This document shows positions 1,804 through 21,950 of a DNA stretch of 47,583 bases, piece after piece (the first letter of the stretch is position 1; every line of letters begins with the position of its first letter). The position numbers and the translations under genes are program-made. Under the pieces are notes generated by a model that saw only the letters and a list, made by a program, of their open reading frames with translations, ran no database searches and had not been told where the DNA came from. Source of the stretch: Lysobacterales bacterium (GTDB lineage Bacteria > Pseudomonadota > Gammaproteobacteria > Xanthomonadales > SZUA-5); NCBI GenBank assembly GCA_022844165.1, contig JALHMH010000037.1, forward strand, positions 1 to 47,583, read 5' to 3'.

Positions 1804-3897
1804 ATGAAGTCTCTTGCACTGATCACACTCGGTAGCGCGCTGTTCGCCGCCCTGCCAGCCGCAGCACAAACCAGCGCCTACGCACTGCTCACGGCAGACG
1901 GCAATCTTGCCTTCGCCATCGACGGCCAACCCGACACGCCGACATCGGCGCTGCCGGTACTTGGCCTGATGACAGGCGATGTGCTCGTGGCCATCGATGT
2001 GCGCCCGCAAAACGGGCGACTATATGGCCTCGGTCAGAATCCCAAACTGGGCACGGTCCGGCTCTACCACCTTGATATCTACGGCGCCGCGGTGCGCGCA
2101 ACGTCGGTGGGCGAAGCAGGCGGTTTCGTCGACGCTAACGGCAATCCCCTGCTGATTCTCGCGCAAGCCTTCGACATCGATTTTAATCCCACGGTCGATC
2201 GTTTGCGGGTGATTGCCAGCAACGGACTGAATTTCCGCATGAATCCCAATAACGGCGCGTTGATCGATGGCAACTTCAACATCACCATGAATCCACCGGC
2301 TGGGGTCAATCCGGATGCCAGTCTCAATGGGGGTGGCGGTGGCGCCATGGGCACCGCTTACACCAACAACGCCATCAACGTCAGCGTCACCACGCAGTAC
2401 ACGCTCGATCATCTCAATGACACGTTGTACATTCAGAACCCGCCCAATGCCGGCACACTGGTGGCTGCACTGCCCATCACCAGCAACGGCGCGCCGCTGA
2501 ATTTCTCCGCCGACGGTGGCCTCGATATCGAGCCTGGCATCAGCGTCACATCCTCAGGCAGTGCCGCGCAAGGTTCAGCCGCGGCAGCGCTGACCGTTGG
2601 CGGCCAGTCGCGCCTGTACCGGATCAATCTTGCTGACGGAACGACGCAACTGCAGGGCAGTTTGGGCGGCCTCAATGTGGTCGATATTGCGGTGGTCAAC
2701 CTGCCGGCAACCGTCAATACGCTGTCACTGTCGGGTACGCAGCTGGCGCGCTTCGCGCTCGCGGCGCCGGGCGCTGTGGCAACGGCAAACGTCACGGGCG
2801 TCGTGGCCGGCGAGCGCCTCGTCGCCATCGATCAGCGACCGAACACGGCGCAGCTCTATGCGCTCGGCATTGATGCCAACAACGATCGCGGCACGATCTA
2901 TGTGCTGGAACCGCAAAGCGCTGGTGGCACCGCACTGGCGAGCCCGGTCGGTGCGCCCGGACGCATCCAGTACTTCGACGAAAACAGCGTCGCCGTCGAC
3001 CTGAGCGATCTGCCTGTCGGCCTGGATTTCAACCCTTTCGTCGACCGGATCCGCATTGTTGACGCCTCAGGCCTGAACGCACGCGCCAATCCCAACGATG
3101 GCGCGCCAATCGACGGCAACGGCAGTGTGCCGTTGGTCAATCCCGACGGCCCGGTCCAGGCGCAGGTGGGAACGCAACTGGTCGCGACGGCGTACACCTC
3201 AAACTTCACGATGCCAACTGCGACGACGCAATACACACTGGACCAGTTCGCCGCGCAATTGTTCATCCAAAATCCGCCGAACGGTGGCAATCAAACGCTA
3301 CCGCTGGCGCTCACGATCGGCGGTGCGCCGTTCGTCTTTAGTAGCGATACCGGCTTCGACATCCCGCCCGGTCCAACCAGCGCAATGCAGAACACGCCCG
3401 CGCCTGGCCTGGGTTATTTCACGGCCAACAGTCCGGCTGGCGCGGCGACGCTCTACGAAATCAACCTCGCCGATGCGGTGGTGCGCTCGCTGGGCACAAT
3501 CGGTATGGGTAGCGCATCGCTCACGGGTTTGGTGGCCTATTCGGCACCAGCCCAGGTTGCGTTCGAAACGACCTCGATCCTCGTCGACGAAAGCAATCAA
3601 CCCGCGGCCGTTCAAGTGTTGCTGCTGGGCGGTGGCAGCGCCCCGGTGTACTTCCGCACCAGCGACGGCACAGCCATCGCCGGCCAGGACTACACGGCGA
3701 CCCGCGGCACCTTGTTTTTGAGCGCGGCCAATCCGCAGGCCACGATCGAGATTCCGATCAACGTCGATGCGCTCGAGGAGCCCGACGAGACCTTCACGGT
3801 ACAGCTATCGGGCCCCTTTGTCACACCCACGACTCTCACCATCACCATTCGCAATCGCGGCGATGCCATTTTCGCCACCGGCTTTGAATCGCTGTAA
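1804..3897 (+). CDS. Secreted protein with two DUF4394 domains, a Calx-beta domain and a C-terminal DAIFATGFE tail
   Basis: GGAG RBS; signal peptide; duplicated motifs AIDxRP, DFNPxVDR, AYTxN, IQNPPN; Calx-beta signature TSDGTAIAGQDY...EEPDETFTVQLS. Confidence 0.85.
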   Translation: MKSLALITLGSALFAALPAAAQTSAYALLTADGNLAFAIDGQPDTPTSALPVLGLMTGDVLVAIDVRPQNGRLYGLGQNPKLGTVRLYHLDIYGAAVRATSVGEAGGFVDANGNPLLILAQAFDIDFNPTVDRLRVIASNGLNFRMNPNNGALIDGNFNITMNPPAGVNPDASLNGGGGGAMGTAYTNNAINVSVTTQYTLDHLNDTLYIQNPPNAGTLVAALPITSNGAPLNFSADGGLDIEPGISVTSSGSAAQGSAAAALTVGGQSRLYRINLADGTTQLQGSLGGLNVVDIAVVNLPATVNTLSLSGTQLARFALAAPGAVATANVTGVVAGERLVAIDQRPNTAQLYALGIDANNDRGTIYVLEPQSAGGTALASPVGAPGRIQYFDENSVAVDLSDLPVGLDFNPFVDRIRIVDASGLNARANPNDGAPIDGNGSVPLVNPDGPVQAQVGTQLVATAYTSNFTMPTATTQYTLDQFAAQLFIQNPPNGGNQTLPLALTIGGAPFVFSSDTGFDIPPGPTSAMQNTPAPGLGYFTANSPAGAATLYEINLADAVVRSLGTIGMGSASLTGLVAYSAPAQVAFETTSILVDESNQPAAVQVLLLGGGSAPVYFRTSDGTAIAGQDYTATRGTLFLSAANPQATIEIPINVDALEEPDETFTVQLSGPFVTPTTLTITIRNRGDAIFATGFESL

Positions 3898-3931
3898 ACG
3901 GCTCTTGCATTCCACTTCGAAGGAGATTCCC

Positions 3932-5413
3932 ATGAAAACTACGCAGCTTTGCACCGCACTGACGCTGGCCCTGTCGATCTTGGTCAGTGGCAACGCGATC
4001 GCCTCAAGCCATCGCGAAGCGCCGTTTATTTCTGAACACCCCAGAGTCGATGGCACCGACTTTTACATGTTCCGCAGCTATGAAACGGGTCGCAGCGATT
4101 TTGTCACGCTGGTGGCCAACTACTTGCCGCTGCAGGACGCTTACGGTGGTCCGAATTATTTCCAGTTGGACCCGGAAGCACTGTACGAAATCCACATCGA
4201 CAACAACGGCGATGCGATTGAGGACATCACCTTTCAATTCCGCTTCAACAACGCCTACCAGAACGCGGCCATCCCGGTGGGCGGACAGATGATCCCAGTG
4301 CCGCTGTTGGCCCTGGGACGCATCACCGGCTCGGATCCGAATTCGCAAGATTCCGTCAAGAATCTGGTCGAAACATATACCGTCGGCGTTATTCGCGGCG
4401 GCCGTCGTGCCAGCACGCCGCAGTTGGCAACAAACACCGCCACCAGTTCCACCACGTTCCGCAAGCCGCTGGACAATATCGGTGAGAAGACTTTTGCGGC
4501 CTACGAGGCATACGCAGATAACCACATCTTCCCGATTGCAGTTCCCGGCTGCGCCACGCCGGGGCGCGTATTCGTCGGTCAACGCCGCGACGGTTTCCGC
4601 ATTCCGCTCGGCGAGGTTTTCGACCTGATCAATCTCAACCCGCTTGGTCCGGCCAACGGTATTGCCGCACTCGACGATGTCATCGACAAGAACGTCACAT
4701 CGATCTCATTGGAACTTCCGATCAGCTGTCTGACCACGACACAACCGATCATCGGCGGTTGGACCACGGCCAGCCTGCGCCGCGCGCGCACGCTCAACCC
4801 CACGCCCGGCGGTACATCAACGGTGCCGAATTCGGCGGGTCCACCGGCTGCGATCGAAGGCGGAAGTTTCGTTCAAGTCTCGCGACTGGGCACGCCTTTG
4901 GTGAACGAACTGGTGATTGGACTGGGCGACAAGGATCGCTTCAACGCTTCCGAACCACGCAACGACGGTCAGTTTGCGGCCTATGTGACCAACCCGACGC
5001 TGCCGGAGCTGATCGAAATTCTGTTCGCCGCTCAAGCGCCTGATGTGTTCCCGCGCACCGACCTCGTCGCCGCCGCGCTCACCGGTGTTGCCGGCCTCAA
5101 TCAGCCACCCGGCGTCACGGCATCGGAAATGCTGCGTTTGAACACCTCAACCGCGGTCACGGCTGCAGCCATGCAGAATCGTCTGGGTGTCATCGCCAAC
5201 GACAACGCCGGTTTTCCGAACGGCCGGCGCCCAGGCGATGACGTGGTGGATATTTTGCTGCGCGTGATGATGGGCGTGCTTCTGCCGCCAGCCCAGGCGC
5301 CAGCGGGGCAATTGGCGTTGGTCGATGGCGTCGAAGTCAACGCCAGCCAGTTCCGCACGACCTTCCCATACCTCGTCACACCGGTGCCAGGCGCGGTGGG
5401 TGTGATTCCGTAG
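3932..5413 (+). CDS. DUF4331 domain-containing secreted protein
   Basis: AAGGAG RBS; signal peptide then SSHREAP, TDFYMFRS, QVSRLGTPLVNE, GFPNGRRPGDDVVD and FPYL motifs. Confidence 0.9.
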   Translation: MKTTQLCTALTLALSILVSGNAIASSHREAPFISEHPRVDGTDFYMFRSYETGRSDFVTLVANYLPLQDAYGGPNYFQLDPEALYEIHIDNNGDAIEDITFQFRFNNAYQNAAIPVGGQMIPVPLLALGRITGSDPNSQDSVKNLVETYTVGVIRGGRRASTPQLATNTATSSTTFRKPLDNIGEKTFAAYEAYADNHIFPIAVPGCATPGRVFVGQRRDGFRIPLGEVFDLINLNPLGPANGIAALDDVIDKNVTSISLELPISCLTTTQPIIGGWTTASLRRARTLNPTPGGTSTVPNSAGPPAAIEGGSFVQVSRLGTPLVNELVIGLGDKDRFNASEPRNDGQFAAYVTNPTLPELIEILFAAQAPDVFPRTDLVAAALTGVAGLNQPPGVTASEMLRLNTSTAVTAAAMQNRLGVIANDNAGFPNGRRPGDDVVDILLRVMMGVLLPPAQAPAGQLALVDGVEVNASQFRTTFPYLVTPVPGAVGVIP

Positions 5414-5429
5414 GTCTGGGTCGTCTGCT

Positions 5430-5461
5430 GAGGATCGCGCGGGTCTTCCCGCGCGATCCTC
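5430..5461 (+). terminator. Strong hairpin after the DUF4331 gene (terminator or mRNA stabiliser)
   Basis: Perfect 14-bp stem gaggatcgcgcggg-tctt-cccgcgcgatcctc; no U-tract. Confidence 0.6.
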
Positions 5462-5624
5462 GGCCGCTCAGTCAGGCGCCTTCGCCACCTGGGATTCCCG
5501 TCTATCGATCAAAGATTGCACCTTTGGACAGTCGCTCAGTCGTCGGCACCAGCCTTGGTGCCGCACCGAAATGTAATTCATATCTCCCGGGTCTACTCAC
5601 CGGTCTTATGTTTCGGTCAGTCGC

Positions 5625-6176
5625 ATGTTCAATCATTACTCGTTCGTGGGTGGCGAACATGGGCCGTGGCGGGTTGTCAGCTGCAACGGCCTCAGGGGCG
5701 AGTCGCTCCCTGTGGTGCCATCCGTGCGCTTCGTGAGCGGGCTTTCACCGCAAACGGCGACGGGGGATTCGTGGGTTTTGCGTGGTTTCACCAGCAACGT
5801 GCGCTACGCAGAGCGTCGAGAGATCGACCAACTTCGCGCGCAACAAGAGGGCCTCAATCGGCCAGCGGCGACGCGCGCAGCGCTGATCCCGATTCGCAAA
5901 AGCGCTCGATGGTGGGCACTGTCGCAGGACGAGCGCCGAACGATCTTCGAGGCGCAATCGCATCACACTGAGATCGGGCTCGCTTACCTGCCCCAGATCG
6001 CCAGACAGCTCCACCACTGCCGGGACATCGGCGAACCCTTCGACTTCCTGACATGGTTCGAGTTTGCGCCGGAGCACGCCCCTGACTTCGAATGTCTGGT
6101 GGAACAGCTGCGCAAAACACCGGAGTGGGATTATGTCGAGCGCGAAGTCGACATTCGTTTGATCAGGAAGCACTGA
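5625..6176 (+). CDS. cld: Chlorite dismutase family protein, short clade-2 type
   Basis: 183 aa; LRGFTSNVRY, IPIRKSARWW, SHH...IARQLHHCRDIGEPFDFLTWFEF and EWDYVEREVDIRL motifs. Confidence 0.85.
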   Translation: MFNHYSFVGGEHGPWRVVSCNGLRGESLPVVPSVRFVSGLSPQTATGDSWVLRGFTSNVRYAERREIDQLRAQQEGLNRPAATRAALIPIRKSARWWALSQDERRTIFEAQSHHTEIGLAYLPQIARQLHHCRDIGEPFDFLTWFEFAPEHAPDFECLVEQLRKTPEWDYVEREVDIRLIRKH

Positions 6177-6262
6177 CTCTTCCGAGTGAGCCTCGCGCCT
6201 ACTTCACGCCACTTTGGCTCTATCTGCGAAGACATTCTTTAACCACGAAGACAAATGGCAGA

Positions 6263-7531
6263 TCAGGCCGGCGGCGCTGCGACAGGAAATCTGACCCGTG
6301 CAACCAGACCGCCGCTCAGGGCGTTGCTCAGTTCCAGGCTTGCGTTGTCCGCGGCCAATGCACGCTTGGCAATGCTCAGCCCTAAACCGGCGCCCTTGCT
6401 ATTGCGTGCGGTATCGCCCCGGTAGAACGGCTCGCCGCAGCGTTGCAGCAGTTGCGGCGCCATACCTTGACCGGCATCGGCAATCTGCAGCTGTACCGCT
6501 CCCGGCGCACTGAACAATCGAATCTCGAACGGCGCTGCGCCGTGTTGTTCGGCGTTCTGCAGGAGATTATCGAGTGCGCGACGAAGGCCGATGGGTCTGG
6601 CCGCAACCCAAAGATCAGGCGTGGCGTCGATCGTCCAATTCGCCGTGCGCCGCGACGCCAGTTCCCGAATGAGCGCGCCAAGTTCGATCAATCGCTGCGG
6701 CTCGTCTTTATCGTCGCGAACAAACGCGAGACAACTCTCGATGATTCCATCCATCTCATCGATGTCTGCGATCATTGCATTACGTGGCTCAGCCGACTCA
6801 TGATCGTTCAATTCCAGCGCCAGCCGCAGGCGCGTCAACGGTGTGCGCAGATCGTGCGAGATGCCGGCGAGTATGGTCTCGCGCTCACGCTGCGTTTGTG
6901 CTGCCTGCTCTGCTGCACGAACGATCACGGCTGCAAGGGTTTGCACCTCACGTGGCGCGTCATCGAGATTGAGCTTGCCAAAGACGGCGCCAACCAACGA
7001 GTCGGCCTGGCTGGCCAGCTGCTCGATTGGGCGCACCAGCACCCGTGCGATCAGCATCGCCGCGAGCAGCGCGATGACGCACGCCGAAGCGACAATGCTG
7101 GTGACCACAAGCGCCGCGCGATCGCGAAAGCCGGCGACCGTCAGCCCGATCCATGTATCTGCCTGATGCCGGCTGCGCAGCCAAATGCGCGCATCGCTGC
7201 CGGCGGATAACAAGACCCATCGCTGATCGCCAACCATCCTGCCGACTTCGGCGCGCAGGTGCTCAAGGAACGGTTGGCTCGAGTCGCCGTTCTCCGGCAC
7301 CTGTTGCGCAAGGATGATCTGGCCGGTTTGCAATGCCGCCAGCGCCGAGCGCTGATCACCTGCCAGCAGTGCGTCGGTGGCTTCAAGCTGCGCAAAAGCC
7401 TGGCGCGCGAGCGGTGGCGCGGTGGCCCAAATGTACCAGCGCAAGCTGCCTGCGGCAGATAACAACACCAGCAACAGGGTCAGTACCTGCAGCGCCAGAA
7501 CGCGAGCATAGGTCGTCGGTAGCAGGCGCAT
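6263..7531 (-). CDS. Sensor histidine kinase, EnvZ-like
   Basis: Two TM segments, HAMP region, H-box ISHDLRTPL, N-box NAEQHG, DAGQG and GAGLGLSI G-boxes. Confidence 0.92.
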   Translation of the reverse strand: MRLLPTTYARVLALQVLTLLLVLLSAAGSLRWYIWATAPPLARQAFAQLEATDALLAGDQRSALAALQTGQIILAQQVPENGDSSQPFLEHLRAEVGRMVGDQRWVLLSAGSDARIWLRSRHQADTWIGLTVAGFRDRAALVVTSIVASACVIALLAAMLIARVLVRPIEQLASQADSLVGAVFGKLNLDDAPREVQTLAAVIVRAAEQAAQTQRERETILAGISHDLRTPLTRLRLALELNDHESAEPRNAMIADIDEMDGIIESCLAFVRDDKDEPQRLIELGALIRELASRRTANWTIDATPDLWVAARPIGLRRALDNLLQNAEQHGAAPFEIRLFSAPGAVQLQIADAGQGMAPQLLQRCGEPFYRGDTARNSKGAGLGLSIAKRALAADNASLELSNALSGGLVARVRFPVAAPPA

Positions 7532-7532
7532 T

Positions 7533-8231
7533 TCAAGTGGCCTGCGGCACAAACATGTAACCCACACCCCACACCGTTTGCAGCCATCTGGGCTGGCGCG
7601 GATCTTCCTCGATCAGCTTGCGTAACCGCACCACCATCACGTCGATGCTGCGATCGAAGGCCTCAATGCCGGCGCCTCTGGTCATACTCACCAGCTTGTC
7701 GCGTGTCATCGGTTCGCCAGGGCGGCTGGTGAGTGCGGCCAATAGCGCGCATTCGCCGCTGGTGAGTTTGAGCGGCTGACCCTCACGAGTCAGCGTGCGC
7801 GAATTGGGATCGAAGGTGTATGCACCAAAGTGCAGTGGCTCGCCCGTGACGACGCGAACCGGTGCGACGCGGCGCAACACGGCATTAATCCGCGCAACCA
7901 ATTCACGCGGATTGAAGGGTTTGCCGATGTAGTCGTCGGCACCGATCTCCAAACCAATGATGCGGTCGATCTCATCGCCTTTGGCCGTCAGCATGATGAT
8001 CGGCATGGCCACGCCCTCGCCACGTAACTGCCGACAGACGCTCAAACCGTCGCCATCAGGCAGCATCAAATCCAGCACCAGCAAATCGATATGGTGTTCG
8101 CGAAGAACCCGGCGCATGGCGGCAATATTGCTCACGCCGCGCACGCCGAATCCTTGCGAAGTCAGATAGCGCTCCAGCAGATCGCGCTGCCGTAAGTCGT
8201 CTTCGAGAATCAAGATCGAGGGCGTTTGCAT
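7533..8231 (-). CDS. OmpR-family response regulator
   Basis: Receiver motifs ILEDD, LDLMLP, MLTAK, GADDY, KPF; winged helix DRSIDV...RLRKLIE...TVWGVGY. Confidence 0.95.
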   Translation of the reverse strand: MQTPSILILEDDLRQRDLLERYLTSQGFGVRGVSNIAAMRRVLREHHIDLLVLDLMLPDGDGLSVCRQLRGEGVAMPIIMLTAKGDEIDRIIGLEIGADDYIGKPFNPRELVARINAVLRRVAPVRVVTGEPLHFGAYTFDPNSRTLTREGQPLKLTSGECALLAALTSRPGEPMTRDKLVSMTRGAGIEAFDRSIDVMVVRLRKLIEEDPRQPRWLQTVWGVGYMFVPQAT

Positions 8232-8274
8232 GACCGCAGCGTAGCCAATGGCGCAGCCGCTGAACATACGCATT

Positions 8275-8340
8275 TGTAAGCAGATGTTTCATAGCAGCCA
8301 TCCCGCATGTTTGCTCACAAACGCGTTGCAGCGCCAAACA
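8275..8340. promoter_or_regulatory. Candidate OmpR-family direct-repeat binding sites in the divergent promoter
   Basis: TGTAAG (8275) and TGTTTC (8285) 10 bp apart; TCACA, TTGCA and AAACA ending at 8319, 8330 and 8340. Confidence 0.4.
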
Positions 8341-8405
8341 ACTCCGGAGTGCGCCGCGACTAGGCTGCGCTTGCCGCAATTGGCGGCGTACCCAGGAGCA
8401 ACTCC

Positions 8406-8888
8406 ATGCGCCAATTCATTCTGATCGGTGCCACGACCCTGTTCGTGATCGGCACCAGTGCCGCGCTCGCCCAGCCGACGATGCTGAGCCCGCTGCTGCG
8501 CTTTGCCAGCGAACGGCAACAGTCGATAGCGAGCTTTGTCACCACGCTGAATTTGACCCCGGCGCAGCAGGCGCAAGCCAGAGCCTTGCAGCAATCGGCC
8601 AAAGAAACCCGCGTCGACATCCTGTTGGCAGCGACCGTCGCCGGTGAGCAGGTCAAACGAGACCTTGCCGACCCCAACGCAGACCTGCACCAAACCGCGC
8701 GATTGGTGCAAGCCACGGTCGACACGCAACTGGCGGCGCACCGCGCGTTGACCGACGAGCGACTGCGCTTCTACGACAACCTGAGCCCAAGCCAACAGGC
8801 GCTGGTGCGCGCGGAAATCGTCGAGCGCATCGAGCGCCTGGAGCGGCTGCAGCAGGTGCTCTTGGACTTCGCCGGCGATGGCATCTGA
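8406..8888 (+). CDS. Periplasmic Spy/CpxP-like helical protein
   Basis: AGGAG RBS; signal peptide ending ALA; two LTxxQ-like motifs (LNLTPAQQ, LSPSQQ); divergent from a two-component system. Confidence 0.7.
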   Translation: MRQFILIGATTLFVIGTSAALAQPTMLSPLLRFASERQQSIASFVTTLNLTPAQQAQARALQQSAKETRVDILLAATVAGEQVKRDLADPNADLHQTARLVQATVDTQLAAHRALTDERLRFYDNLSPSQQALVRAEIVERIERLERLQQVLLDFAGDGI

Positions 8889-8913
8889 GTGAGTGACCGA
8901 AAGGGGATCCACG

Positions 8914-10377
8914 ATGCATAGGACTGGGGCGGGGATGCTGCTGGCGCTGATTGCGCCAGCAGCAGTGGCAGCAACCTTTCAGGTTGACACGGTGCTGGAT
9001 GCACGCGATGCCAATCTGGCAGACGGTTTGTGCGCGAGTGCGCAGGGCAGCTGCAGTTTGCGCGCTGCGATCGAGCAGGCAAACGCGCTGGACGGCAATG
9101 ATGTGATTCAGCTGCCCAACGGAGAGTACCTGCTGACGCTGGCCGGCGCGAACGAGGACGGTTCGGCGAGCGGTGATTTGGACATCAGCAGCACCCTATC
9201 GATTCTCGCAAACGACGCGGCTGCGACCCGCATCGTGGGCAGCGGCGATCGCGTGCTGGATGTTCAACTCGGCGCGATTGCCGCCATCACGCGCGTGACC
9301 GTGACCGGTGGTGGCGGCGTCGCCGCGGGCGGCGGTATCCGCAACGCCGGAACGCTGGTGTTGACCGGCTGCGAGGTCACAGGCAACGGTGGCGACGGTC
9401 GCGCGGTGACCAACGGCGGCGGAATTTTCAATCTCGGTGTGCTGACCTTGGCCGGAGGCGTCGTTAGCTCCAACCAGGTGCAAAGCAACGGTCCGATTCC
9501 AGTCGCCGGAGCAGGCATTTATTCCACCACCGGCATGCTGCTCACCGGAGTCAGAGTCGATAACAACAACGCGGTCGGCAACAACGCGGTGGGCGGCGGA
9601 ATTCAGGCGCTGGCACCGGGCATTGTGCAAATCGTGAGCGGTAGCGTGATCGGCAATCAGGCGGCTCAGGGCGCCGGCATCCAGGTTGCAGGTGCCGACG
9701 TCAACTTGAACGGCGTAATCGTTGCGGCCAACAGCGCCACGCGCTCCGGCGCTGGCGCACGCGTGCTGAGCGGTGCGCTGGTGCTGACCAACACCACCTT
9801 CAGTGGCAACAGCGCAAATGAGGACGGCGGTGGTGTCGCGCTCAATGGCGGCAACCTGAGCGGCTACAGCGTGACCTTCGCCGACAATCTCGCCGACGCC
9901 GATCTGAATGGCAGTGGCGGCGGTGGTGGTATTGCGCAAAGCGGCGGCGCGACGGCGCAGTTGCTCAACAGCATTGTGGCCAGCAATCGGGATGGCTCGC
10001 CAACCGGCACCCCGGCCACCGATTGCCTCGGAACGCTCGGTTCCGGCGGGTTCAATCTGGTGGGTACTACACAAGGTTGCAACTTTGTCGCTTTAGACAC
10101 CGATCAAGTCAATGTCGACGCGGGCCTGGCAGCGCTGGCGAACAACGGCGGCGCAACGCCCACGCACGCGCTCCTGGTGAACAGCCTGGCGTTGGACGCG
10201 GGCGATCCAGCCGGATGTCTGGATTCCACGATGCAGGCTTTGCTCACCGATCAGCGTGGTTTGCCGCGCATTCGCGACGGCAATGCCGATGGCATGGCGC
10301 GCTGCGACAGCGGCGCGTTTGAGCTGCAGCCCGAATCAATCGACCCCATTTTTGCCAACGGATTCGAAATCCCATGA
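8914..10377 (+). CDS. Secreted CSLREA-domain beta-helix protein with choice-of-anchor Q-like region and DPIFANGFE tail
   Basis: Signal peptide; CSLRAAIEQAN; repeated GGGI..N / N.A..GGG units; NNGGATPTHALLVNSLALDAG...DQRG...CDSGAFE. Confidence 0.85.
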   Translation: MHRTGAGMLLALIAPAAVAATFQVDTVLDARDANLADGLCASAQGSCSLRAAIEQANALDGNDVIQLPNGEYLLTLAGANEDGSASGDLDISSTLSILANDAAATRIVGSGDRVLDVQLGAIAAITRVTVTGGGGVAAGGGIRNAGTLVLTGCEVTGNGGDGRAVTNGGGIFNLGVLTLAGGVVSSNQVQSNGPIPVAGAGIYSTTGMLLTGVRVDNNNAVGNNAVGGGIQALAPGIVQIVSGSVIGNQAAQGAGIQVAGADVNLNGVIVAANSATRSGAGARVLSGALVLTNTTFSGNSANEDGGGVALNGGNLSGYSVTFADNLADADLNGSGGGGGIAQSGGATAQLLNSIVASNRDGSPTGTPATDCLGTLGSGGFNLVGTTQGCNFVALDTDQVNVDAGLAALANNGGATPTHALLVNSLALDAGDPAGCLDSTMQALLTDQRGLPRIRDGNADGMARCDSGAFELQPESIDPIFANGFEIP

Positions 10378-12179
10378 AACGTAGAGAATTTATTGCGAGC
10401 AGCATCGCGATGAGCGCAACGCCGCTAACCGCCAGCGCCATGGACCCGATCTTGAGCAACGGTTTCGAGTTGCCGCGAAAACCCAATATCTTGTTCATTC
10501 TGGTCGATGAAATGCGTTTTCCAATGCACTTCCCGATGCCCGGAATGACCTGGCAGCAGTTCATCGCCAACACCATGCCCAACCTTTGGCGAGTCTGGTC
10601 GCAAGCGGTGAGTTTCAATGATCATCACACCGCCGCGACCGCCTGCACACCATCGCGCGCCTGCCTGATGACCGGGCTTTACGCGCACCAGCACTTTCAA
10701 CTCACCACACTCGCGCCGAACACCGCCTCGCAAGGCAGTGGACTTGGTCCACAACTGCCTGTGGATTACCCAACCCTGGGCACCATCATGGCTGACTTGG
10801 GATACAGCAACTGGTATTTCGGCAAATGGCATTTGTCGTTTTCCGGCAATGATCCGGCGCTCGATGCCGGCGGCGCCAGCTACCTCACGCCTTACACTTA
10901 CCCAGGTAGCAGCTATCTGAGCGACTATGGTTTCAATGGCGGCTGTTATCCCGATCCGGATGGCCACACGCCAGCTTCGGCGGCTCAAGGCGATCCGCAT
11001 ATCGTCGATGGATTCTTGCGCTGGTATCAGCAGACGCGCCCGAGCTTGAGCGCGCCCTGGTTTGCCACTGTGTCGCTGCTGAACCCACATGATATGCAAT
11101 TCTTCTGGGACGGTCCCTTTGATGACCCCACGCGCACCACTCGACGCGATGGCACTGGCAGCGAATGGGTGCCATTGGACTTGGCGTCGATCCCGACTTT
11201 GTATCAGGAGCGTGCACCGAATTGGCAAGTGCAACCACAGGCCGGGGCGCCCGCAGTGATCGGCGATACCGCACGCTTGCAAGACATCATCAACGGCGCG
11301 ATCAGTGCCAGTGGCGATGGTTTTGCCGTGGCCTCGATTTCGCCACCGCTCAACGTGCCGAACGCGCCCACCACCTACACGATCGCGCCGCAAAGTTATT
11401 GGACGCGCGCGCTCGACTATTACTGCGCGCTGATGACGCAACTCGACGGTGAAATCGGTCGCGTACTCGATGCGGTGGCCAACACCGACACACTGATCGT
11501 GTTCACCTCCGACCACGGAGATTTCGCTGGATCGCACGGCCTGATCGGCAAAGGCTACAGCGGTTACCGCGAGAGCACGCATGTGCCGTTTTTTGTCTAC
11601 GATCCGCGCGGCCAGTACACGGGCGAAACCAACGTCCCAAGAACTGGATTGACTTCTAGCGTCGACGTGCTGCCGATGATTGCCACTCTCGGCAATCGCG
11701 GCAGCACCTCCTGGCGCGATGGCAACGTGCGTTATGCGCAGCTCTTTGGCACTCGCCATAACGTTTTTGCGATGCTGCGCTCAGCCAGTGCCAACGGGCG
11801 CAGTTTTGTATTGCAGACCTACGATGAGCCTCTGGGGACGATGAACGCCGCACACGTCATTTCTTTGCGCACCGCGACCGGGCTCTATGTGGGGTACTAC
11901 AACTGGCCAACGATCGGGGGCCCACTACCGGCGCCAAGCAGCGAGCAGTATTTCGCTGCCAGCGATGTTTTGGAACTCAACAATCTGGCTGGCAGTCCGG
12001 CTGCGATCAGCGCCGCGCAACAGCTGACGGACTTGATCAACACCGAGCTGCGCGCGCCACTGCCGCTCAACCTACAGCCCGTTCGAGCGCAAATGATCAA
12101 TCGCTACGAGCAGTACAGCACCATCGTTGCGCCCTCGAATTTCCTGGGGATCATGGTCTTCAACCAGGTGAACTGGTAA
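10374..12179 (+). CDS. Tat-exported formylglycine-type sulfatase family protein
   Basis: KRREFI twin-arginine motif; KPNILFILVDE; CTPSRACLMTG; GKWHL; FTSDHG; ATGA overlap with the upstream stop. Confidence 0.9.
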   Translation: MKRREFIASSIAMSATPLTASAMDPILSNGFELPRKPNILFILVDEMRFPMHFPMPGMTWQQFIANTMPNLWRVWSQAVSFNDHHTAATACTPSRACLMTGLYAHQHFQLTTLAPNTASQGSGLGPQLPVDYPTLGTIMADLGYSNWYFGKWHLSFSGNDPALDAGGASYLTPYTYPGSSYLSDYGFNGGCYPDPDGHTPASAAQGDPHIVDGFLRWYQQTRPSLSAPWFATVSLLNPHDMQFFWDGPFDDPTRTTRRDGTGSEWVPLDLASIPTLYQERAPNWQVQPQAGAPAVIGDTARLQDIINGAISASGDGFAVASISPPLNVPNAPTTYTIAPQSYWTRALDYYCALMTQLDGEIGRVLDAVANTDTLIVFTSDHGDFAGSHGLIGKGYSGYRESTHVPFFVYDPRGQYTGETNVPRTGLTSSVDVLPMIATLGNRGSTSWRDGNVRYAQLFGTRHNVFAMLRSASANGRSFVLQTYDEPLGTMNAAHVISLRTATGLYVGYYNWPTIGGPLPAPSSEQYFAASDVLELNNLAGSPAAISAAQQLTDLINTELRAPLPLNLQPVRAQMINRYEQYSTIVAPSNFLGIMVFNQVNW

Positions 12180-17626: not shown

Positions 17627-18040
17627 TTACCAGCAGGACCCGTTCGTATCGTCCCCGCTCTGACCCTTCGCGCCCGCATTATTGACGGTCAGATTGCCGC
17701 ACTTGTCGCTGACTTGCCTGCCCTGCGGTACAACTTCCAGCAAAAAGGTCTGGTCGCCAGCACCGAGGATAACGCGGGCGGTGTAAAAGCCTTGCTCAGA
17801 GAGGTTGGTCAGAGATAATCCGGCAGCCCCAGTGATGTCCGCGGTGTAGCGGTTGAAGTTCGTATAGAAGCGTTCTTGAGCCGCCGCAACACGCATTCCG
17901 AATTCGCGACCATCTGCGCGATTGGCCCGAAGTACATAGTTCGTGTAGCTCGGATACGCCAGCGCCGCCAGAATAGCAACGATGCCGACAACAACGATGA
18001 GTTCGATGATTGTGAAGCCGGTCTGGCGAGACGAGTTCAT
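17627..18040 (-). CDS. pilE: Type IV minor pilin PilE
   Basis: Prepilin site G/FTIIE; AYPSY..YV.RA.R; QERFY; C-terminal Cys pair ending CW. Confidence 0.92.
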   Translation of the reverse strand: MNSSRQTGFTIIELIVVVGIVAILAALAYPSYTNYVLRANRADGREFGMRVAAAQERFYTNFNRYTADITGAAGLSLTNLSEQGFYTARVILGAGDQTFLLEVVPQGRQVSDKCGNLTVNNAGAKGQSGDDTNGSCW

Positions 18041-18060
18041 AGTTCCACCCTGAGAATTCC

Positions 18061-18090
18061 AAAACCGCGCTGACCGATCGGCCAGCGCGG
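18061..18090 (-). terminator. Hairpin plus short U-tract between pilY1 and pilE
   Basis: Minus strand ccgcgctggccgatcggtcagcgcgg followed by TTTT. Confidence 0.55.
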
Positions 18091-18101
18091 GCATCCAACC
18101 C

Positions 18102-21100
18102 CTACTCTTCGTTCACCAACTCGCGCCATGCGCCGCGGTGCCAGATGTTGTCGGCCGCCGAGAACGCAGATGTGATTGCGTCTCTCAATACTGCCGGGAG
18201 CCCTGGTGGCAATGGCGCCGGCGTAATCGAACCTGGGCCACCCCCGCGACGCGATACCGGATCGCCGATGGGTCGGTTCGAGCTCAGCACCGCGCCCACA
18301 ACACGATTTACGGCATTAGTGCTGGTGTCGGTCGGATTCACTCGAGCCGACCCAGTGGCGGCATCGACGACCAACAATCCGAATCGAGCACCTGGGTCGC
18401 ACGGGTCAACGCCTTTGGGAATGATCGAGCGCAAGAGTACCGTATTGGAGCTAAAGAACGGGAACGCCCGATCACCCGCGCGCTCTCCCGGCTCGGACGC
18501 GATGTTCATTGGGATACGCCAGCCTCTGAACGCTGCCGTGACCGGCGCATTGTTGGTGGCATTTGAGGGCAACGAACGCACGCCGTCTGCGTTTTGCGAC
18601 AGCTGTCGGGTCACAAGCTGATCAACGCGTATCGGATAGTTGGTACATGCAAGCGGACTATTGCTGCACGAGCCGTAGTCTCGAATTCCGTAAAAGTTCT
18701 GCAGTGGAATCGCTGCGGTACGGTCTGGCGCACCAATGAACTTGCCAGAACCGAATACGAAAATCGGTCCGAGTGTCACGGGATCACGCAGCGCTTGTGG
18801 CGCAAACGCGATCGGTTGGTCGCCCGGATTCGCCGCCCCGCCATTGCCGTACGTCTTGAACATCAAGTCCACCGACCATTCCGATGGATTGCTGGACGAA
18901 AGATCGAAGCGCCAGAGATTTCCCGCGAGATCGCCAGCGACGGCGATATCGGCAATCTGGTCATTACCGAAGTCATACACGATCGGCTGGGACAAGCCGA
19001 ACGTTCTTGCGGCCGAGGCAAACTGCGGCGCGATGCTGGTCGAAATCTCTCGGATCAGGGTGCCATTCTCTAAATCGACAACCATGAGCGAAGTCCGATT
19101 CGCTTTTGTGGAATCGGATGCCGGATCGAGCGTATCGGTCGGAAAGTAGCCACTGGAAATCAGCGCGACCCACTTGTCGTTATATCGAATACGCGTCGGA
19201 TTGGCGGACTCATAGGTGTAACCCAAGGAAGAGCAGAAACTCGCGCCCGGCGAACAATCCGTCCCGACAGATTCAGCCGTCTGCTCCCCGGTAAACTCCC
19301 ACATTGCCAGTGGGCTGCCCTCGGTCACGCCGGAAGGATTCGTCACGTCGATTGCGTAAACGGCGCGCCCTCCCAATCGCAGCCCACCCACAATGATTGT
19401 CCGCCACCGACCGCCCAAGAAGGCGTCGTACTGCAACGGACGATCATCCGCAGTAGGCACCAGACCCACTTCGAACTGTGTCGACTTCACGAGCCGATAG
19501 TTTTCGAACAAGATGTTTGGCACATAGGCAAACCGTTCGTCGCCGGTTTGCGCATCAAACGCATGAATCATTCCATCATTCGCAGCGACAAAAACATGCG
19601 GGCGACGAGCGCGCTGATCATTCTGATAGCGCGCGTAGCTGTTGCCGCCTTCTGCAGCAACCTGCTCAGGCGAGCCCAGCGGGAAAGAGTCACGGTGCCC
19701 GGTGATTGGCGACGACACATACACCGGTTGGCCGCGAATCACCGCACCAACGAGCGAACTTCGAACTCGGAACCGCGGCGTTTCGGTGGTTTCGTTGGTG
19801 CGGACACCACGCAGGTAATCCAAGCGCTGCTGGCCGAAAGCATCGGCATCAATCACCTGAGGCACCAAGTCGAGGCGCAGAGTATTCGGTCGGATGTTAA
19901 GCCGCTGAGTCTGTGTTGGACTCAGGCTGCTCCAGCGGAAAGGCTTGGACGTGCCGGGGCGACCATCGGACGTGATGATGACACGCGTGTTCGGGTCGCG
20001 AACTGGCAGACCCGTTTGCGCTGTCGATGGGCATGCCCCACCGGTCAGAATACAGGCCGCATCCCACTCGATCGCCACCACATCGCCCGTGACTGGGTCT
20101 AAACGATCTCGGGTCAAAAAACCGGACCAGTCGCTGGTATCAAACCCCGCCGAGTAACCGGCCGTCCCATCGGTCAAAAGCGGCAAAGATACCGATGTCG
20201 CGGTCGCACCGGCTCGTCGGGCGATGATGCTGGCTACCACCTCCTGCAGTGCCTGGATCAGTTCATTGGGATCCTGCGCGGTGAAAAAGCGTCCGCGACT
20301 GTTGATGGCAGCGTGCCACATGTCATCAATGTTGGCCACCACGTTGGCAGAAGTTGCTGGCCATTGGATCAAGTTGCGGCGAAGGCGATTTAAGTTAGCC
20401 CCTGTTTGCGGAATCGTCCCGTTAACACCGAAACTCACCATAAAATTGACCATATGCGACCAAGTCGCCGGGTCGTTCGCGGGGTTCCAATAAATTTCTT
20501 GATGGTCAAGTGCAGCCTGACCGGATGCAAGCGGCGGCCCAAACACATTGGTGCTCCGGTCGGGCAAAAATGGCGCAACTTTGTTTCGCGTAGCCGCATT
20601 CAGCGCAAAATCGGGCCGCAAGTTAGTCGCCCAATAGCGCCAGGCGATGTCTGCCAGAGACACGGTTGTTCCGCCGGTACCCGCATCAGCACCGTAGATC
20701 CGTGACTCCGCCTGAGCAGAATTGTATCCACGAGCGTCAGGAAGTGTCTGCGTTGCAGGCGCATTGTCGCGCGGAACCACTGTTGCGACCCCCGGGGGAG
20801 TCTGATTCCAAAAACCGTCCGAAATATTAAAGTGAAAGTTCTGACGGCAGCTGAGTTCGCGATTCAGATCTCGATCCCAATACGGATTGCCGTCATTGGC
20901 TCCCGCAAACGTGCCTCCGTTGCCTCGTTGATAAAATTGCCCGGCCCGAATCGTGGCGTCAAGCGTCGGAGTTCCTCCGCCTACACGAATCAGGAACAAC
21001 CAATCGTAGAAGCGATTCCGCACATCTGCATTAATCGGCTCGTTCTTGAATTTATACATCAGCATCGCGTTGCTCAGCTGATTGCTATTCAAGTTCTGCC

Positions 21101-21917
21101 AGGCAACTCGAATGTTTTCGTCGAATGCCGCAAAACCCAGCGACATCGAAGACGCTGCTGTGAGCGCTCGCGTGTGGTAATACGACCACCAGATCGCGAA
21201 GTTTGTCAGATCCCCGCCAAGCACAGGGACAAACTCCCAGTTAGCGGCGTTATAAAGGTCGCCCGTGTTGGTGATACGCCCGTTAACGTCGGTCAAGAGT
21301 GCGGGCGCCGTTGAGCGGTAGCGGTAATAACCCGGGCCGATGTTCACTGTCGTTGAAGTTGTGCAGAACTGGGCAGTGAGCAGATTTCGGGCGCCGTACG
21401 CGTTCGCGGTGCCGATGGCCGGGATCGCCATCGTTGTTTCAGGCGCCACTGGCCGGAAACGGATGATGCCGTTGTTAGGCACCAGCGCCAGATTCGTGGG
21501 CGTCGGAAATCTGGTCACACCATCGGCATATAGCGGTGTTGCGTAGCTAATGTTGGGATTATAATAAACGCCATTCATCGCGAACGAACGCGGGTTTGCC
21601 GGATCCGTGACACGCGGATCTATCACGGCGGCGCAGAGCCATGGTGTATTGTAGTTGTAGCGGTTGTTGTGGTGATTTGACTGATCGTCCCGAGCACCCC
21701 AGCCGCCGTTATCGAAGGGCCGCTGATCAGGCATAAAATGGCGACCCATAGATCCTGAATCGTCCAACGTGGCAATCACATTGGGAGCAACGCTAGACGT
21801 GAGATCAGGCGGTGTCGCAAGCAAATCGACAGTACCATCGGCCGCGCCCCATGCGGGTCCATTGGCAAACGCCAGAAACGCCGCGATCCAGACACCCGAC
21901 TTAATAAACGCTTTCAT
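18102..21917 (-). CDS. pilY1: Type IV pilus tip adhesin PilY1
   Basis: 1271 aa; signal peptide; vWA-like DDSGSM and GGTPT; DDMWHAAINSRG; ANDGMIHAFDA; AGDLAGNLWRFDL propeller; position in the cluster. Confidence 0.93.
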   Translation of the reverse strand: MKAFIKSGVWIAAFLAFANGPAWGAADGTVDLLATPPDLTSSVAPNVIATLDDSGSMGRHFMPDQRPFDNGGWGARDDQSNHHNNRYNYNTPWLCAAVIDPRVTDPANPRSFAMNGVYYNPNISYATPLYADGVTRFPTPTNLALVPNNGIIRFRPVAPETTMAIPAIGTANAYGARNLLTAQFCTTSTTVNIGPGYYRYRSTAPALLTDVNGRITNTGDLYNAANWEFVPVLGGDLTNFAIWWSYYHTRALTAASSMSLGFAAFDENIRVAWQNLNSNQLSNAMLMYKFKNEPINADVRNRFYDWLFLIRVGGGTPTLDATIRAGQFYQRGNGGTFAGANDGNPYWDRDLNRELSCRQNFHFNISDGFWNQTPPGVATVVPRDNAPATQTLPDARGYNSAQAESRIYGADAGTGGTTVSLADIAWRYWATNLRPDFALNAATRNKVAPFLPDRSTNVFGPPLASGQAALDHQEIYWNPANDPATWSHMVNFMVSFGVNGTIPQTGANLNRLRRNLIQWPATSANVVANIDDMWHAAINSRGRFFTAQDPNELIQALQEVVASIIARRAGATATSVSLPLLTDGTAGYSAGFDTSDWSGFLTRDRLDPVTGDVVAIEWDAACILTGGACPSTAQTGLPVRDPNTRVIITSDGRPGTSKPFRWSSLSPTQTQRLNIRPNTLRLDLVPQVIDADAFGQQRLDYLRGVRTNETTETPRFRVRSSLVGAVIRGQPVYVSSPITGHRDSFPLGSPEQVAAEGGNSYARYQNDQRARRPHVFVAANDGMIHAFDAQTGDERFAYVPNILFENYRLVKSTQFEVGLVPTADDRPLQYDAFLGGRWRTIIVGGLRLGGRAVYAIDVTNPSGVTEGSPLAMWEFTGEQTAESVGTDCSPGASFCSSLGYTYESANPTRIRYNDKWVALISSGYFPTDTLDPASDSTKANRTSLMVVDLENGTLIREISTSIAPQFASAARTFGLSQPIVYDFGNDQIADIAVAGDLAGNLWRFDLSSSNPSEWSVDLMFKTYGNGGAANPGDQPIAFAPQALRDPVTLGPIFVFGSGKFIGAPDRTAAIPLQNFYGIRDYGSCSNSPLACTNYPIRVDQLVTRQLSQNADGVRSLPSNATNNAPVTAAFRGWRIPMNIASEPGERAGDRAFPFFSSNTVLLRSIIPKGVDPCDPGARFGLLVVDAATGSARVNPTDTSTNAVNRVVGAVLSSNRPIGDPVSRRGGGPGSITPAPLPPGLPAVLRDAITSAFSAADNIWHRGAWRELVNEE

Positions 21918-21950
21918 GAAAATCTCCTTTCGACGGCAAGTTTCAGACCG

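Follow-up and report, generated by a model that had tools for sequence, protein, structure and literature searches.

Several kinds of terminal signals are known to direct exported bacterial proteins. The tripartite C-terminal sorting signals (LPXTG/sortase, PEP-CTERM/exosortase, GlyGly-CTERM/rhombosortase and MYXO-CTERM/myxosortase) are short signatures found on dozens of unrelated exported proteins per genome. Each is lineage-restricted and stands many-to-one with a machinery, and in each the signature is followed by a hydrophobic transmembrane helix and a basic cluster. The type IX secretion C-terminal domain (CTD) of Bacteroidota is a folded beta-sandwich domain of tens of residues on many large secreted or surface proteins that carry Sec signals. 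In type II secretion systems (T2SS), such as EpsC-VesB of Vibrio cholerae and the Out system of Dickeya and Pectobacterium, substrate selection is unresolved and the PDZ domain of GspC is needed only for a subset of cargo (PMC12369372, PMC7949064). The secretion information can be grafted (PMC12369372), flexible segments of the cargo matter, and the signals are thought to be structural rather than linear (PMC7949064). The known determinants lie in a folded Ig-like domain or in several loops. The C-terminal beta-signal of outer-membrane proteins and the YxF C-termini sensed by the DegS PDZ domain are aromatic-rich extreme C-termini read in the periplasm by beta-strand addition.

Here we describe a peptide of seven to nine residues ending in Gly-Phe-Glu which caps about eighty unrelated, mostly exported proteins in a Lysobacterales bacterium and its relatives. 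Like the tripartite signals, it occurs on dozens of unrelated proteins per genome, is lineage-restricted and is found on the same cargo classes, including choice-of-anchor, FG-GAP and Calx-beta proteins, subtilases and nucleases. However, it has no transmembrane helix and no basic tail because the protein simply ends at the motif, and N-terminal and linker copies exist. No Pfam or NCBIfam model covers it, and literature searches for the motif or for a sorting signal in these bacteria, which did not extend to supplementary files and were in part swamped by an unrelated word, found no description of it. A paper on tripartite signals (10.1101/2023.06.07.544157) contains none of the terms GFE, Xanthomonad or Lysobacter.

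The GFE peptide in the window and in the genome

The window is the whole stretch of 47,583 nucleotides that was analysed (contig JALHMH010000037.1 of assembly GCA_022844165.1). The initial annotation had noticed D-x-I-[FL]-x-x-G-F-E at a terminus of three exported proteins sharing no other domain, and this observation is confirmed at the positions in Table 1. P0001 ends in RGDAIFATGFESL-stop, P0002 ends in IDPIFANGFEIP-stop, and P0003 reads MKRREFIASSIAMSATPLTASA/MDPILSNGFELPRKPN. A degenerate DNA pattern for D-x-h-[FL]-x-x-G-F-E matched the window three times, exactly at these places, whereas 100 dinucleotide-preserving shuffles gave a mean of 0.01 and none reached three. The three proteins share no domain. 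Our signal-peptide heuristic found a signal on all three, with MKSLALITLGSALFAALPAAA/QTS predicted in P0001 and cleavage near ASA/M in P0003, whose signal looks Tat-like (KRREFI).

Table 1. Positions of the tagged genes, their tags and the candidate reader gene.
Feature	Position	Strand	Description
P0001 gene	1804-3897	+	697-aa exported protein; DUF4394 x2 (E 1e-86) and Calx-beta (E 2e-15)
P0001 tag	3862-3894	+	C-terminal DAIFATGFE (3862-3888) plus SL; stop codon 3895-3897
P0002 gene	8893-10377	+	CSLREA / choice-of-anchor Q beta-helix protein; ORF runs from GTG at 8893, but the database twin P0004 has 480 aa, so the true start is probably at 8935
P0002 tag	10342-10374	+	C-terminal DPIFANGFE (10342-10368) plus IP, 5 residues after the choice-of-anchor Q domain (residues 409-479)
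P0003 gene	10374-12179	+	601-aa sulfatase (E 1e-43); Tat-like signal peptide, residues 1-22 (10374-10439)
P0003 tag	10443-10469	+	DPILSNGFE at the mature N-terminus, between the signal peptide and the first beta-strand of the sulfatase fold (PNILFILVDE)
Candidate gspC	25002-25919 of contig C16, same genome		GspC with T2SSC region and sub-threshold PDZ

Of 50 six-frame matches to D.[ILVM][FLYM]..GF[ED] in the whole genome (G000), 40 lie 0-3 residues from the stop of an ORF of at least 100 aa and 3 follow a signal peptide. The other 7 are internal, in short ORFs, or in a cytoplasmic-looking protein. GFE is the second commonest C-terminal tripeptide of ORFs of at least 100 aa (69 of 21236, against 3.8 expected from the frequency of GFE). 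Of 3192 called genes, 76 end in h-x-x-G-F-[ED] plus 0-4 residues; 57 of them stop exactly at GFE and 19 carry only 1-4 further residues. The position profile of those 57 is D at -9 (28), L/V/I/M at -7 (53), F (44) or L (10) at -6, A at -5 (34), and N (35), D (13) or S (7) at -4. Wobble positions and all three stop codons vary and a reversed-pattern control gave 0-1 matches, indicating that selection acts on the protein and not on a DNA repeat.

The carriers are long and mostly have signal peptides. With a score of at least 3.5, our heuristic was positive for 67 of 76 tagged genes as compared to 966 of 3116 untagged genes. By our own permissive heuristic, 72 of 76 tagged proteins have a predicted signal peptide, unlike cargo of type I secretion, which lacks one and is exported in one step. 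Of 44 C-terminally tagged proteins scanned, 30 hit at least 18 families, including S8, M14, M28 and M12B peptidases, Endonuclease I, esterase, CotH, FG-GAP, beta-helix, Sortilin/BNR, Calx-beta and Big_3_5, and 14 hit nothing. An alignment of 36 tails shows no conservation upstream of the motif.

The 39-aa tails had no relevant hit in Pfam or NCBIfam at E <= 10, and NCBIfam found no CTERM model on P0001 or P0002. With no helix and basic cluster after the motif, the tag does not fit the PEP-CTERM, GlyGly-CTERM, MYXO-CTERM, LPXTG and IPTL-CTERM pattern, and with a tail that is unstructured in the model of P0002 it does not fit the folded T9SS CTD. The tag is not an outer-membrane beta-signal, because the last residue is Glu in 57 of 57 exact-terminal copies and the carriers are hydrolases and repeat proteins rather than beta-barrels. 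P0002 does belong to the choice-of-anchor Q proteins (NF041518, 59.3 bits against a cut-off of 25), in which the domain is followed by a variable sorting tail.

The tag was not modelled as an integral strand of either fold examined. The AlphaFold model of P0002 is a beta-helix with mean pLDDT 89.9, but residues 488-494 have pLDDT below 50, so the tag does not pack on the fold. In P0003, residues 10-28, including the first five residues of the N-terminal tag, have pLDDT below 50, and no secondary structure is modelled before residue 38. Out of 120 sulfatases (the query plus 119 homologues), only P0003 and its 60%-identical homologue P0243 (SIFRDGFEP) carry the N-terminal copy.

Phyletic range and dialects

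In a sample of 301 genomes of the class, the motif is abundant only in the window's own order, Lysobacterales/Xanthomonadales (named relatives are Dokdonella, Ahniella, Rudaea, Marinicella and others). The position-free motif occurs in 99 of 149 genomes of the order, with the control at 0 in all 149. Outside the order the maximum is 1 per genome, in 8 genomes.

In homologues from other lineages, including other phyla, the same position holds other tails. Among 119 homologues of P0002, 25 have GFE-like tails, at least 24 have short [YF]LP[LI]xx[RK] tails and 2 have TM tails. Among 119 homologues of P0001, the counts are 58, at least 15 and 1, respectively. Thus the tag occupies the slot of other sorting tails. 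To see whether the cargo persists without the tag, we sought P0001, P0003, a tagged protein of genome G434 and the choice-of-anchor Q family in tag-free genomes of families f2 and f12; none was found, and the comparison could not be made there.

One genus (g14) uses F-x-D-R-F-[EDQ] instead. Orthologues of a tagged protein end there in ..IFWDRFD and ..IFRDRFQ, and Arg replaces Gly in 12 of 16, 15 of 19 and 8 of 12 terminal matches. The pattern h-F-x-D-R-F-[DEQH] occurs 102 and 78 times against 2 and 1 for the control, and about 23 of 30 sampled copies lie 0-8 residues from the stop. This lineage-wide change in many unrelated proteins argues for a shared reader acting in trans. Records named Wenzhouxiangella are the commonest recurrent carriers of the DRF form.

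The concerted change, and the all-or-none presence of the tag between genomes of one genus (see below), would not be expected if the motif were a cis-acting end-piece, that is, a small cap or linker convention protecting the ends of exported beta-rich proteins, for example from tail-specific proteases, without a dedicated reader. The motif does sit at domain ends, and when not terminal it is followed by Pro-rich linkers, as between the LPMO_10 and fn3 domains at residue 294 of locus L167. AlphaFold does not pack it on either fold tested, and we consider this reading unlikely. Equally unlikely is a processing site at which a secreted or periplasmic protease cuts at or after GFE, trimming short extensions, removing N-terminal propeptides and separating domains. 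It would unify the C-terminal copies with 1-10 extra residues, the N-terminal copies and the internal copies followed by another 185-213 residues. However, in 57 of 76 copies in G000 nothing is left to cut after Glu, and no protease candidate was found.

Co-occurrence with a canonical type II secretion system

The initial annotation had stated that the window holds no receptor or processing enzyme; it was right about the receptor, and a candidate system lies elsewhere in the genome. Analysis of the neighbours of tagged genes in G000, in 113 loci from other genomes and in 20-kb flanks of genomes G026 and G434 showed no sorting enzyme, but only ECF sigma and Ser/Thr-kinase pairs and transposases. 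Sortase, exosortase, rhombosortase and myxosortase families were not searched for as such; none appeared among the recurrent neighbours. We compared genomes with and without the motif, an approach proposed at the outset, and found that within the order the tag tracks a canonical gspC(PDZ)-gspD-gspE system and occurs almost only in genomes carrying this second T2SS.

The G000 GspC matches T2SSC (PF11356) with 69.7 bits against a cut-off of 27. Its PDZ models score 20.7-22.4 bits, below their cut-offs, but match at the same place in three homologues. In 20 genomes examined, gspC is followed directly by a gspD secretin in 19, and in most of them by gspE. These features identify the protein as GspC. 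It was found in 92 of 149 genomes of the order. Against tag presence, 82 genomes have both, 44 neither, 13 the tag only and 10 GspC only. Nine of the 10 GspC-only genomes belong to the DRF-dialect genus, and 4 of the 13 tag-only genomes do have GspC when a query from their own family is used. Within family f2, only G434 has tags and only G434 has GspC (1 of 19 genomes).

This association predicted the same pattern in genomes not yet examined, and we tested it in a new, denser sample of 131 genomes of family f12. All 32 genomes with at least 6 motif copies have GspC, and 92 of 99 without the motif lack it. This includes a split inside genus g306, where 3 genomes have both and 4 have neither. 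The families searched for comparison do not track the tag, and the Xps-type system is universal in the order. The Xps marker T2SSM_b (PF10741) is present in 147 of 149 genomes and ECF sigma PF07638 in 149 of 149, so both are found in tag-free genomes and were rejected as partners. The patchy T6SS VipA is present in 16 of 149, 12 of them tag-free.

The association has exceptions. Six of 19 genomes of family f8 have 3-11 tag copies but no GspC with the G000 query, and PF11356 found none in three of them. Genomes G030, G447 and G454 (completeness 96%, 90% and 99%) have tags but no GspC was found. GspC occurs without tags in G394 and in genus g341 (7 of 7 genomes), and a 400-kb sample of G521 from that genus showed no tag-like tail. 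Canonical T2SSs are also common in other orders where the motif is not found. The system is thus at most necessary for the tag, not sufficient. Moreover, related genomes are not independent; we see roughly 3-5 independent gain or loss events, and tag-free genomes also lack the cargo families tried, so any gene tied to that cargo or lifestyle would co-vary in the same way. No tagged gene was seen next to gsp genes.

Possible readers and roles of the tag

We propose, with moderate confidence, that h-[FL]-x-[NDS]-G-F-E, often preceded by D three residues earlier, is a short portable address tag on proteins that have already crossed the inner membrane by Sec or Tat. It lies at a free end of the folded protein, nearly always the extreme C-terminus, rarely the mature N-terminus and occasionally a linker, and a shared component of the cell envelope would read it in trans. 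The most likely reader is the canonical Gsp-type T2SS (gspC, gspD, gspE and further genes), carried in addition to the Xps-type system. In this view, the tag marks a large set of hydrolases and adhesin-like repeat proteins as cargo of that system, for release or for display on the surface. The cargo types are typical of T2SS, but dependence of export on a T2SS was not measured here. Binding of the tag to GspC has not been shown, and the binding, route and fate of the tag were not tested. Our data establish that the tag exists, where it sits, which proteins and lineages carry it and in which dialects, that it co-occurs with GspC, and that it is not modelled as part of two folds; recognition in trans, the T2SS as reader, and the part that touches the tag (PDZ, HR domain, secretin N-domains or pseudopilus) are our inference.

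The initial interpretation, a portable terminal tag on unrelated exported proteins that fits no membrane-anchored sorting class and no known family, is supported on each of these points, although its suggestion of secretion or surface docking is still only inferred.

A classical PDZ ligand needs a free C-terminus. The 57 exact-terminal tags of G000 provide one, but the other 19 of 76, most tags in genome G349 (1-10 extra residues) and in g14, and the N-terminal and linker copies do not, and these observations do not tell us whether the tag is a PDZ ligand. Co-folding of the peptide with candidates had been suggested as a test; complex prediction of the GspC PDZ region (residues 196-305) with a 40-residue tail profile gave scores of 0.07 and 0.00 and no answer, which counts neither for nor against binding. 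A link between the f7-type PDZ strand (PVN-GGGFRVRP against PVM-xx-GKxxGVRL) and the DRF dialect was considered, but we take no position on it because other f7 genera with that PDZ type show some GFE copies.

A more far-reaching and only tentative reading is that the GFE tag (DRF[EQ] in one genus) is the first linear, portable targeting signal for a T2SS, read by the GspC-GspD module of the second, canonical system. A cell with two T2SSs could thus route about 80 proteins to one of them, and co-evolution of tag and reader would give the dialects. No T2SS has a described consensus tag. Short terminal tags have repeatedly led to new protein-sorting machineries, and this one marks about 2% of the genes in an order of environmental and plant-associated bacteria. 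How T2SSs choose their cargo is a long-standing question, and a grafting-ready tag of seven to nine residues, a natural G to R switch and genus-level presence/absence contrasts would make it directly testable. The tag could also be used to annotate the extracellular proteome of these bacteria from sequence alone.

Alternatively, the tag may be a retention or docking signal. The proteins would leave the periplasm by some route, possibly the T2SS, and the tag would then hold them non-covalently on an outer-membrane protein, on LPS or on a surface scaffold. The anchoring tails at the same position in other lineages and the choice-of-anchor domain of P0002 are consistent with this possibility, and the concerted dialect change fits any shared receptor. 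However, no receptor candidate was found, the tag has no obvious lipid-binding or carbohydrate-binding character, and the co-occurrence with GspC would then be indirect. We regard this reading as possible but less likely than the first.

Very unlikely, in our view, is that the tag is a ligand for the periplasmic TPR domains of the membrane Ser/Thr kinases (Pkinase + TM + TPR) that pair with ECF sigma factors, reporting export of the tagged proteins. The PF07638 sigma factors are not confined to tagged genomes, there are 76 tags for 44 kinases in G000, and all tags share one motif. Nevertheless, 14 of the 44 kinase paralogues have a tagged gene within three genes, against about 6 expected, and kinase genes lie in 21 of the 113 loci from other genomes.

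Occurrence and position of the terminal tag

The initial annotation pointed to a shared D-x-I-[FL]-x-x-G-F-E peptide at the termini of three unrelated exported proteins, and all three copies were found where it had placed them. A degenerate DNA pattern for the motif matched the window three times, at exactly these places, against 0.01 expected from shuffled sequences. The three proteins share no domain. Comparison with existing family models had been suggested as a test of novelty, and neither Pfam-A nor NCBIfam 20.0 has a model that covers the tails, even at E <= 10.

Coordinates of the features described in the text (genome G000 is the genome to which the window belongs; C numbers are its contigs)
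Location	Strand	Feature
Window 1804-3897		P0001, DUF4394 x2 + Calx-beta; ends in DAIFATGFE-SL
Window 3767-5413, 5625-6176, 6263-8273	+, +, -	DUF4331 protein directly behind the DUF4394 gene, followed by a chlorite-dismutase-like protein; histidine kinase / response regulator pair between the two tagged genes
Window 8893-10377		P0002, CSLREA + choice-of-anchor Q; ends in DPIFANGFE-IP
Window 10374-12179		P0003, sulfatase; DPILSNGFE follows a Tat-like signal peptide
Window 17627-23977	-	Type IV pilus minor-pilin cluster
Window, about 18019 and 23890	-	GFTIIEL motif of two prepilin-like genes
Window 18102-21950	-	1282-aa ORF flanked by the two prepilin-like genes
G000 C3:210351-221733		Xps-type T2SS cluster, including XpsD
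G000 C16:22858-25919		GspD secretin directly behind a GspC with a C-terminal PDZ region
G000 C8:112202-115147 and C8:27146-27727		Example loci of the membrane Ser/Thr kinases that are often paired with PF07638 ECF sigma factors
G000 C41:24767-27226		L167, LPMO_10 (residues 103-282) - fn3 (311-393) - GH18 (405-791) protein; tag LLFANGFE at residue 294
G000 C22:2066-6763		L168, Rhs-repeat protein with a C-terminal NucA/NucB nuclease domain; motif copy SIFGNGFE at residue 1224

The tag is genome-wide. The window lies on contig C37 of a 4.68-Mb genome with 60.5% G+C. Of 50 six-frame matches to D.[ILVM][FLYM]..GF[ED] in this genome, 40 lie 0-3 residues from the stop codon of an ORF of at least 100 aa, and 3 lie directly behind a signal peptide. 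The other 7 are internal, in short ORFs, or in a cytoplasmic-looking protein. GFE is the second commonest C-terminal tripeptide of long ORFs (69 of 21236, against 3.8 expected). With a crude gene caller of our own (3192 genes), 76 genes end in [FLIMVWY]..GF[ED] plus 0-4 residues, and 57 of these end exactly at GFE. The profile of the 57 copies is D at -9 (28), L/V/I/M at -7 (53), F (44) or L (10) at -6, A at -5 (34), and N (35), D (13) or S (7) at -4, followed by G-F-E. Upstream of this there is no conservation.

The tagged proteins are long (median 711 aa against 348 aa). At a heuristic signal-peptide score of at least 3.5, 67 of 76 tagged genes are positive as compared to 966 of 3116 untagged genes; because the heuristic is permissive, only the contrast is meaningful. 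We scanned 44 C-terminally tagged proteins against family libraries. Thirty hit at least 18 different families, including S8 (x2), M14, M28 (x2) and M12B peptidases, Endonuclease I, an esterase, CotH, FG-GAP, beta-helix/NosD, Sortilin/BNR, Calx-beta, Big_3_5, PKD, DUF4394, DUF7452 and others, and fourteen hit nothing. This mixture of degradative enzymes and adhesin-like repeat proteins is what other phyla decorate with sorting tails.

Beside the C-terminal copies there are 3-4 copies at the mature N-terminus. About ten full-motif copies are internal, and most of these are followed by Pro/Gly/Thr-rich linkers. One lies exactly between the LPMO_10 and fn3 domains of the chitinase fusion L167, which looks as if a tagged stand-alone gene had been fused to the next gene while keeping the full tag at the end of the LPMO part. 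In the Rhs-repeat protein L168, on which our heuristic found no signal peptide, the copy precedes the C-terminal toxin-like part. The N-terminal copy on the sulfatase is an add-on. Of 120 sulfatases (P0003 and 119 homologues), only P0003 and one homologue with 60% identity have it, and in the others the signal peptide runs straight into the first strand, PNILFILVDE.

One of the conditions that the initial annotation had named as counting against a portable tag is that the peptide is an integral strand of each fold. AlphaFold2 models show that neither copy examined is part of the fold. P0002 is modelled as a confident beta-helix (mean pLDDT 89.9), but its residues 488-494 are below 50. In P0003, residues 10-28 are below 50 and nothing is structured before residue 38.

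Phyletic range, exchange of tails and dialects

The DNA pattern for F-x-[NDSG]-G-F-E-stop occurs 47 times in the genome and the reversed control occurs 0 times. Wobble bases and all three stop codons vary, so this is not a DNA repeat and selection acts at the protein level. The pattern is present in all 22 other genomes of the window's family and in most families of its order, with 3-75 copies per genome. In a sample of 301 genomes of the class (including the unpublished G074, on which nothing rests), genomes outside the order have 0-4 matches, which is like the control. A position-free pattern for D-x-h-F-x-[ND]-G-F-E matched 99 of the 149 genomes in the order sample, with a control of 0 in all 149. 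Outside the order, only 8 genomes of the class sample matched, with one copy each. Other classes and phyla were not sampled systematically. In an unrestricted but not exhaustive scan of about 185,000 species genomes, the matches examined bear almost only names from Lysobacterales (Dokdonella, Ahniella, Aquimonas, Rudaea, Tahibacter, Pseudolysobacter, Chiayiivirga, Marinicella and Rhodanobacteraceae), and a few MAGs carry other labels. In 113 loci collected from other genomes, 130 ORFs of at least 120 aa end in the tag.

The same slot holds other tails elsewhere. After the choice-of-anchor Q domain (..CD.GAFE), the 119 listed homologues of P0002 end in GFE-like tails (25), in a different short tail [YF]-L-P-[LI]-x-x-[RK] (at least 24), in a TM helix plus basic residues (2), and the rest in other ways or with nothing. 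Among the 119 homologues of P0001, an unrelated family, the corresponding counts are 58, at least 15 and 1. The second tail, [VIL]-[YF]-L-P-[LI]-x-x-[RK]-stop, was seen in homologues from other phyla (P0022-P0123 and P0162-P0240), whose named sources include Roseiflexaceae, Herpetosiphonaceae, Ardenticatenia and Dehalococcoidia MAGs. It is too short for a TM helix and may be another undescribed tag. Tail swapping at a fixed position on conserved bodies is how other sorting signals were recognized.

One genus of the order, g14, looked tag-free in the GFE censuses (0 of 9 genomes). However, its orthologues (50-53% identity) of a tagged G000 protein end in ..DAIFWDRFD and ..DRIFRDRFQ, and a Calx-beta protein ends in ..DLLFDDRFEN. 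Among terminal F-x-[ND]-x-F-x-stop matches in three g14 genomes, the -3 residue is Arg in 12 of 16, 15 of 19 and 8 of 12. The pattern h-F-x-D-R-F-[DEQH] occurs 102 and 78 times, against 2 and 1 for the control. About 23 of 30 sampled copies lie 0-8 residues from the stop, one follows a signal peptide, and the rest are internal or spurious. In a scan of the genome collection the commonest recurrent name for this form is Wenzhouxiangella, although many other matches there look like chance hits. In family f4 of the order, Ser or Gln at -3 is a frequent minority form. In genome G349 the motif is usually followed by 1-10 extra residues, and 21 of 29 copies lie within 10 residues of the stop. A change of one motif position in about a hundred unrelated proteins of one lineage, including orthologues of G-type proteins, is hard to explain without a shared reader whose specificity changed.

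Co-occurrence with a second type II secretion system

We next searched for a candidate reader. Recurrent neighbors of tagged genes are regulatory only, being ECF sigma factors (PF07638) and membrane Ser/Thr kinases. G000 has about 44 paralogues of this kinase (Pkinase, one TM helix and about 500 aa of periplasmic TPR), often paired with a PF07638 sigma factor, and 14 of them have a tagged gene within three genes. The same pairing occurs in 21 of the 113 loci from other genomes. That sigma family is present in all 149 genomes, so it does not track the tag.

The genome has three secretins: PilQ, XpsD inside an Xps-type T2SS cluster, and a GspD directly behind a GspC. Further genes of this second, canonical T2SS are dispersed, with a second gspE on contig C7 and gspI/J/K-like genes on C46. 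The Xps marker T2SSM_b is universal in the order (147 of 149). GspC is not universal. With the G000 protein as query it was found in 92 of 149 genomes, distributed by family as f1 13/13, f3 7/7, f4 18/19, f5 2/2, f6 2/2, f7 18/19, f9 9/10, f10 15/19 and f8 0/19. In f2 it was found in 1 of 19, and that one is G434, the only tagged f2 genome. In f12 it was found in 6 of 19, which are exactly the motif-rich f12 genomes. In 19 of 20 genomes from nine families, gspC is directly followed by gspD, and mostly by gspE as well.

Scored against tag presence (at least 3 copies in either census), 82 genomes have both, 44 have neither, 13 have the tag only and 10 have GspC only. Nine of the ten GspC-only genomes belong to the DRF-dialect genus. 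Four of the thirteen tag-only genomes (family f10) do have GspC when an f10 query is used, at E 1e-50 to 1e-84. We then made a prediction and tested it on a new, denser sample of family f12 (131 genomes, 28 genera). The motif is present in all sampled genomes of genera g293, g19, g303, g336 and g338, and in 3 of 7 genomes of g306. GspC is present in exactly those 32 genomes plus all 7 genomes of another genus, g341, and is absent from the other 92. Inside g306 the split is perfect, with 3 genomes having both and 4 having neither. As a patchy control system, T6SS VipA was found in 16 of 149 genomes, 12 of them tag-free.

The association has exceptions in both directions. Six f8 genomes have 3-11 tags and no detectable GspC, and G030, G447 and G454 also have tags without a detected GspC. 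Conversely, genome G394 and the g341 genomes (G472, G489, G505, G521, G536, G551 and G566) have a divergent GspC without the GFE motif, and a 400-kb sample of G521 showed no tag-like tail of any dialect. Canonical T2SSs are also common elsewhere without this motif. So the system is at most necessary, not sufficient. Related genomes are not independent, and we count only a handful of independent transitions. Tag-free genomes also lack the cargo families that we tried, so genes linked to that cargo for other reasons would co-vary in the same way. A PDZ domain normally needs a free C-terminus, which the extended, N-terminal and internal copies do not offer. The reader, if it is the T2SS, may be another part of the system. 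In an alignment of GspC sequences (columns about 480-500), the PDZ strand reads PVM-xx-GKxxGVRL in most families. In the three f7 sequences, two of which come from the DRF-dialect genus, it reads PVN/PVS-GGGFRVRP or GGYKVFP with a 3-4 residue deletion, which could be co-variation with the tag or plain phylogeny.

Relation to known sorting signals and other genes in the window

T2SS substrate selection is described as poorly understood. In Vibrio cholerae the EpsC PDZ domain is needed only for VesB, whose Ig-like domain carries graftable information (PMC12369372). In the Out systems the signal is composite and partly disordered (PMC7949064). A preprint listing C-terminal sorting signals contains none of the terms GFE, Xanthomonad or Lysobacter, and our other literature searches, which speak only for the library and the terms used, found no description of the tag.

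The finding is real, far beyond chance, and not covered by the family libraries or papers that we could search. Its existence, position, range and dialects, and its co-occurrence with GspC, are shown, whereas a reader and its identity are inferred. The peptide behaves like a sorting signal, and the interpretation in the initial annotation, of a portable tag on exported proteins that fits no membrane-anchored type, is supported. It differs from every described class by being only 7-9 residues long, lacking a membrane anchor, and tolerating either terminus. The best-supported mechanism is recognition in trans, tied to the second, GspC-PDZ-bearing T2SS of these bacteria, although no binding has been shown. 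The main rival is a surface-docking role after secretion. For Wenzhouxiangella AB-CW3, 37 of 45 signal-peptide proteases were expressed and no proteolytic activity was released into the medium; the authors assumed outer-membrane anchoring and mentioned the T2SS as a possible route (PMC7691419).

Other genes noticed in the window are listed in the table. In the type IV pilus minor-pilin cluster, the long ORF, on which no family scan was run, occupies the place where PilY1 usually lies.
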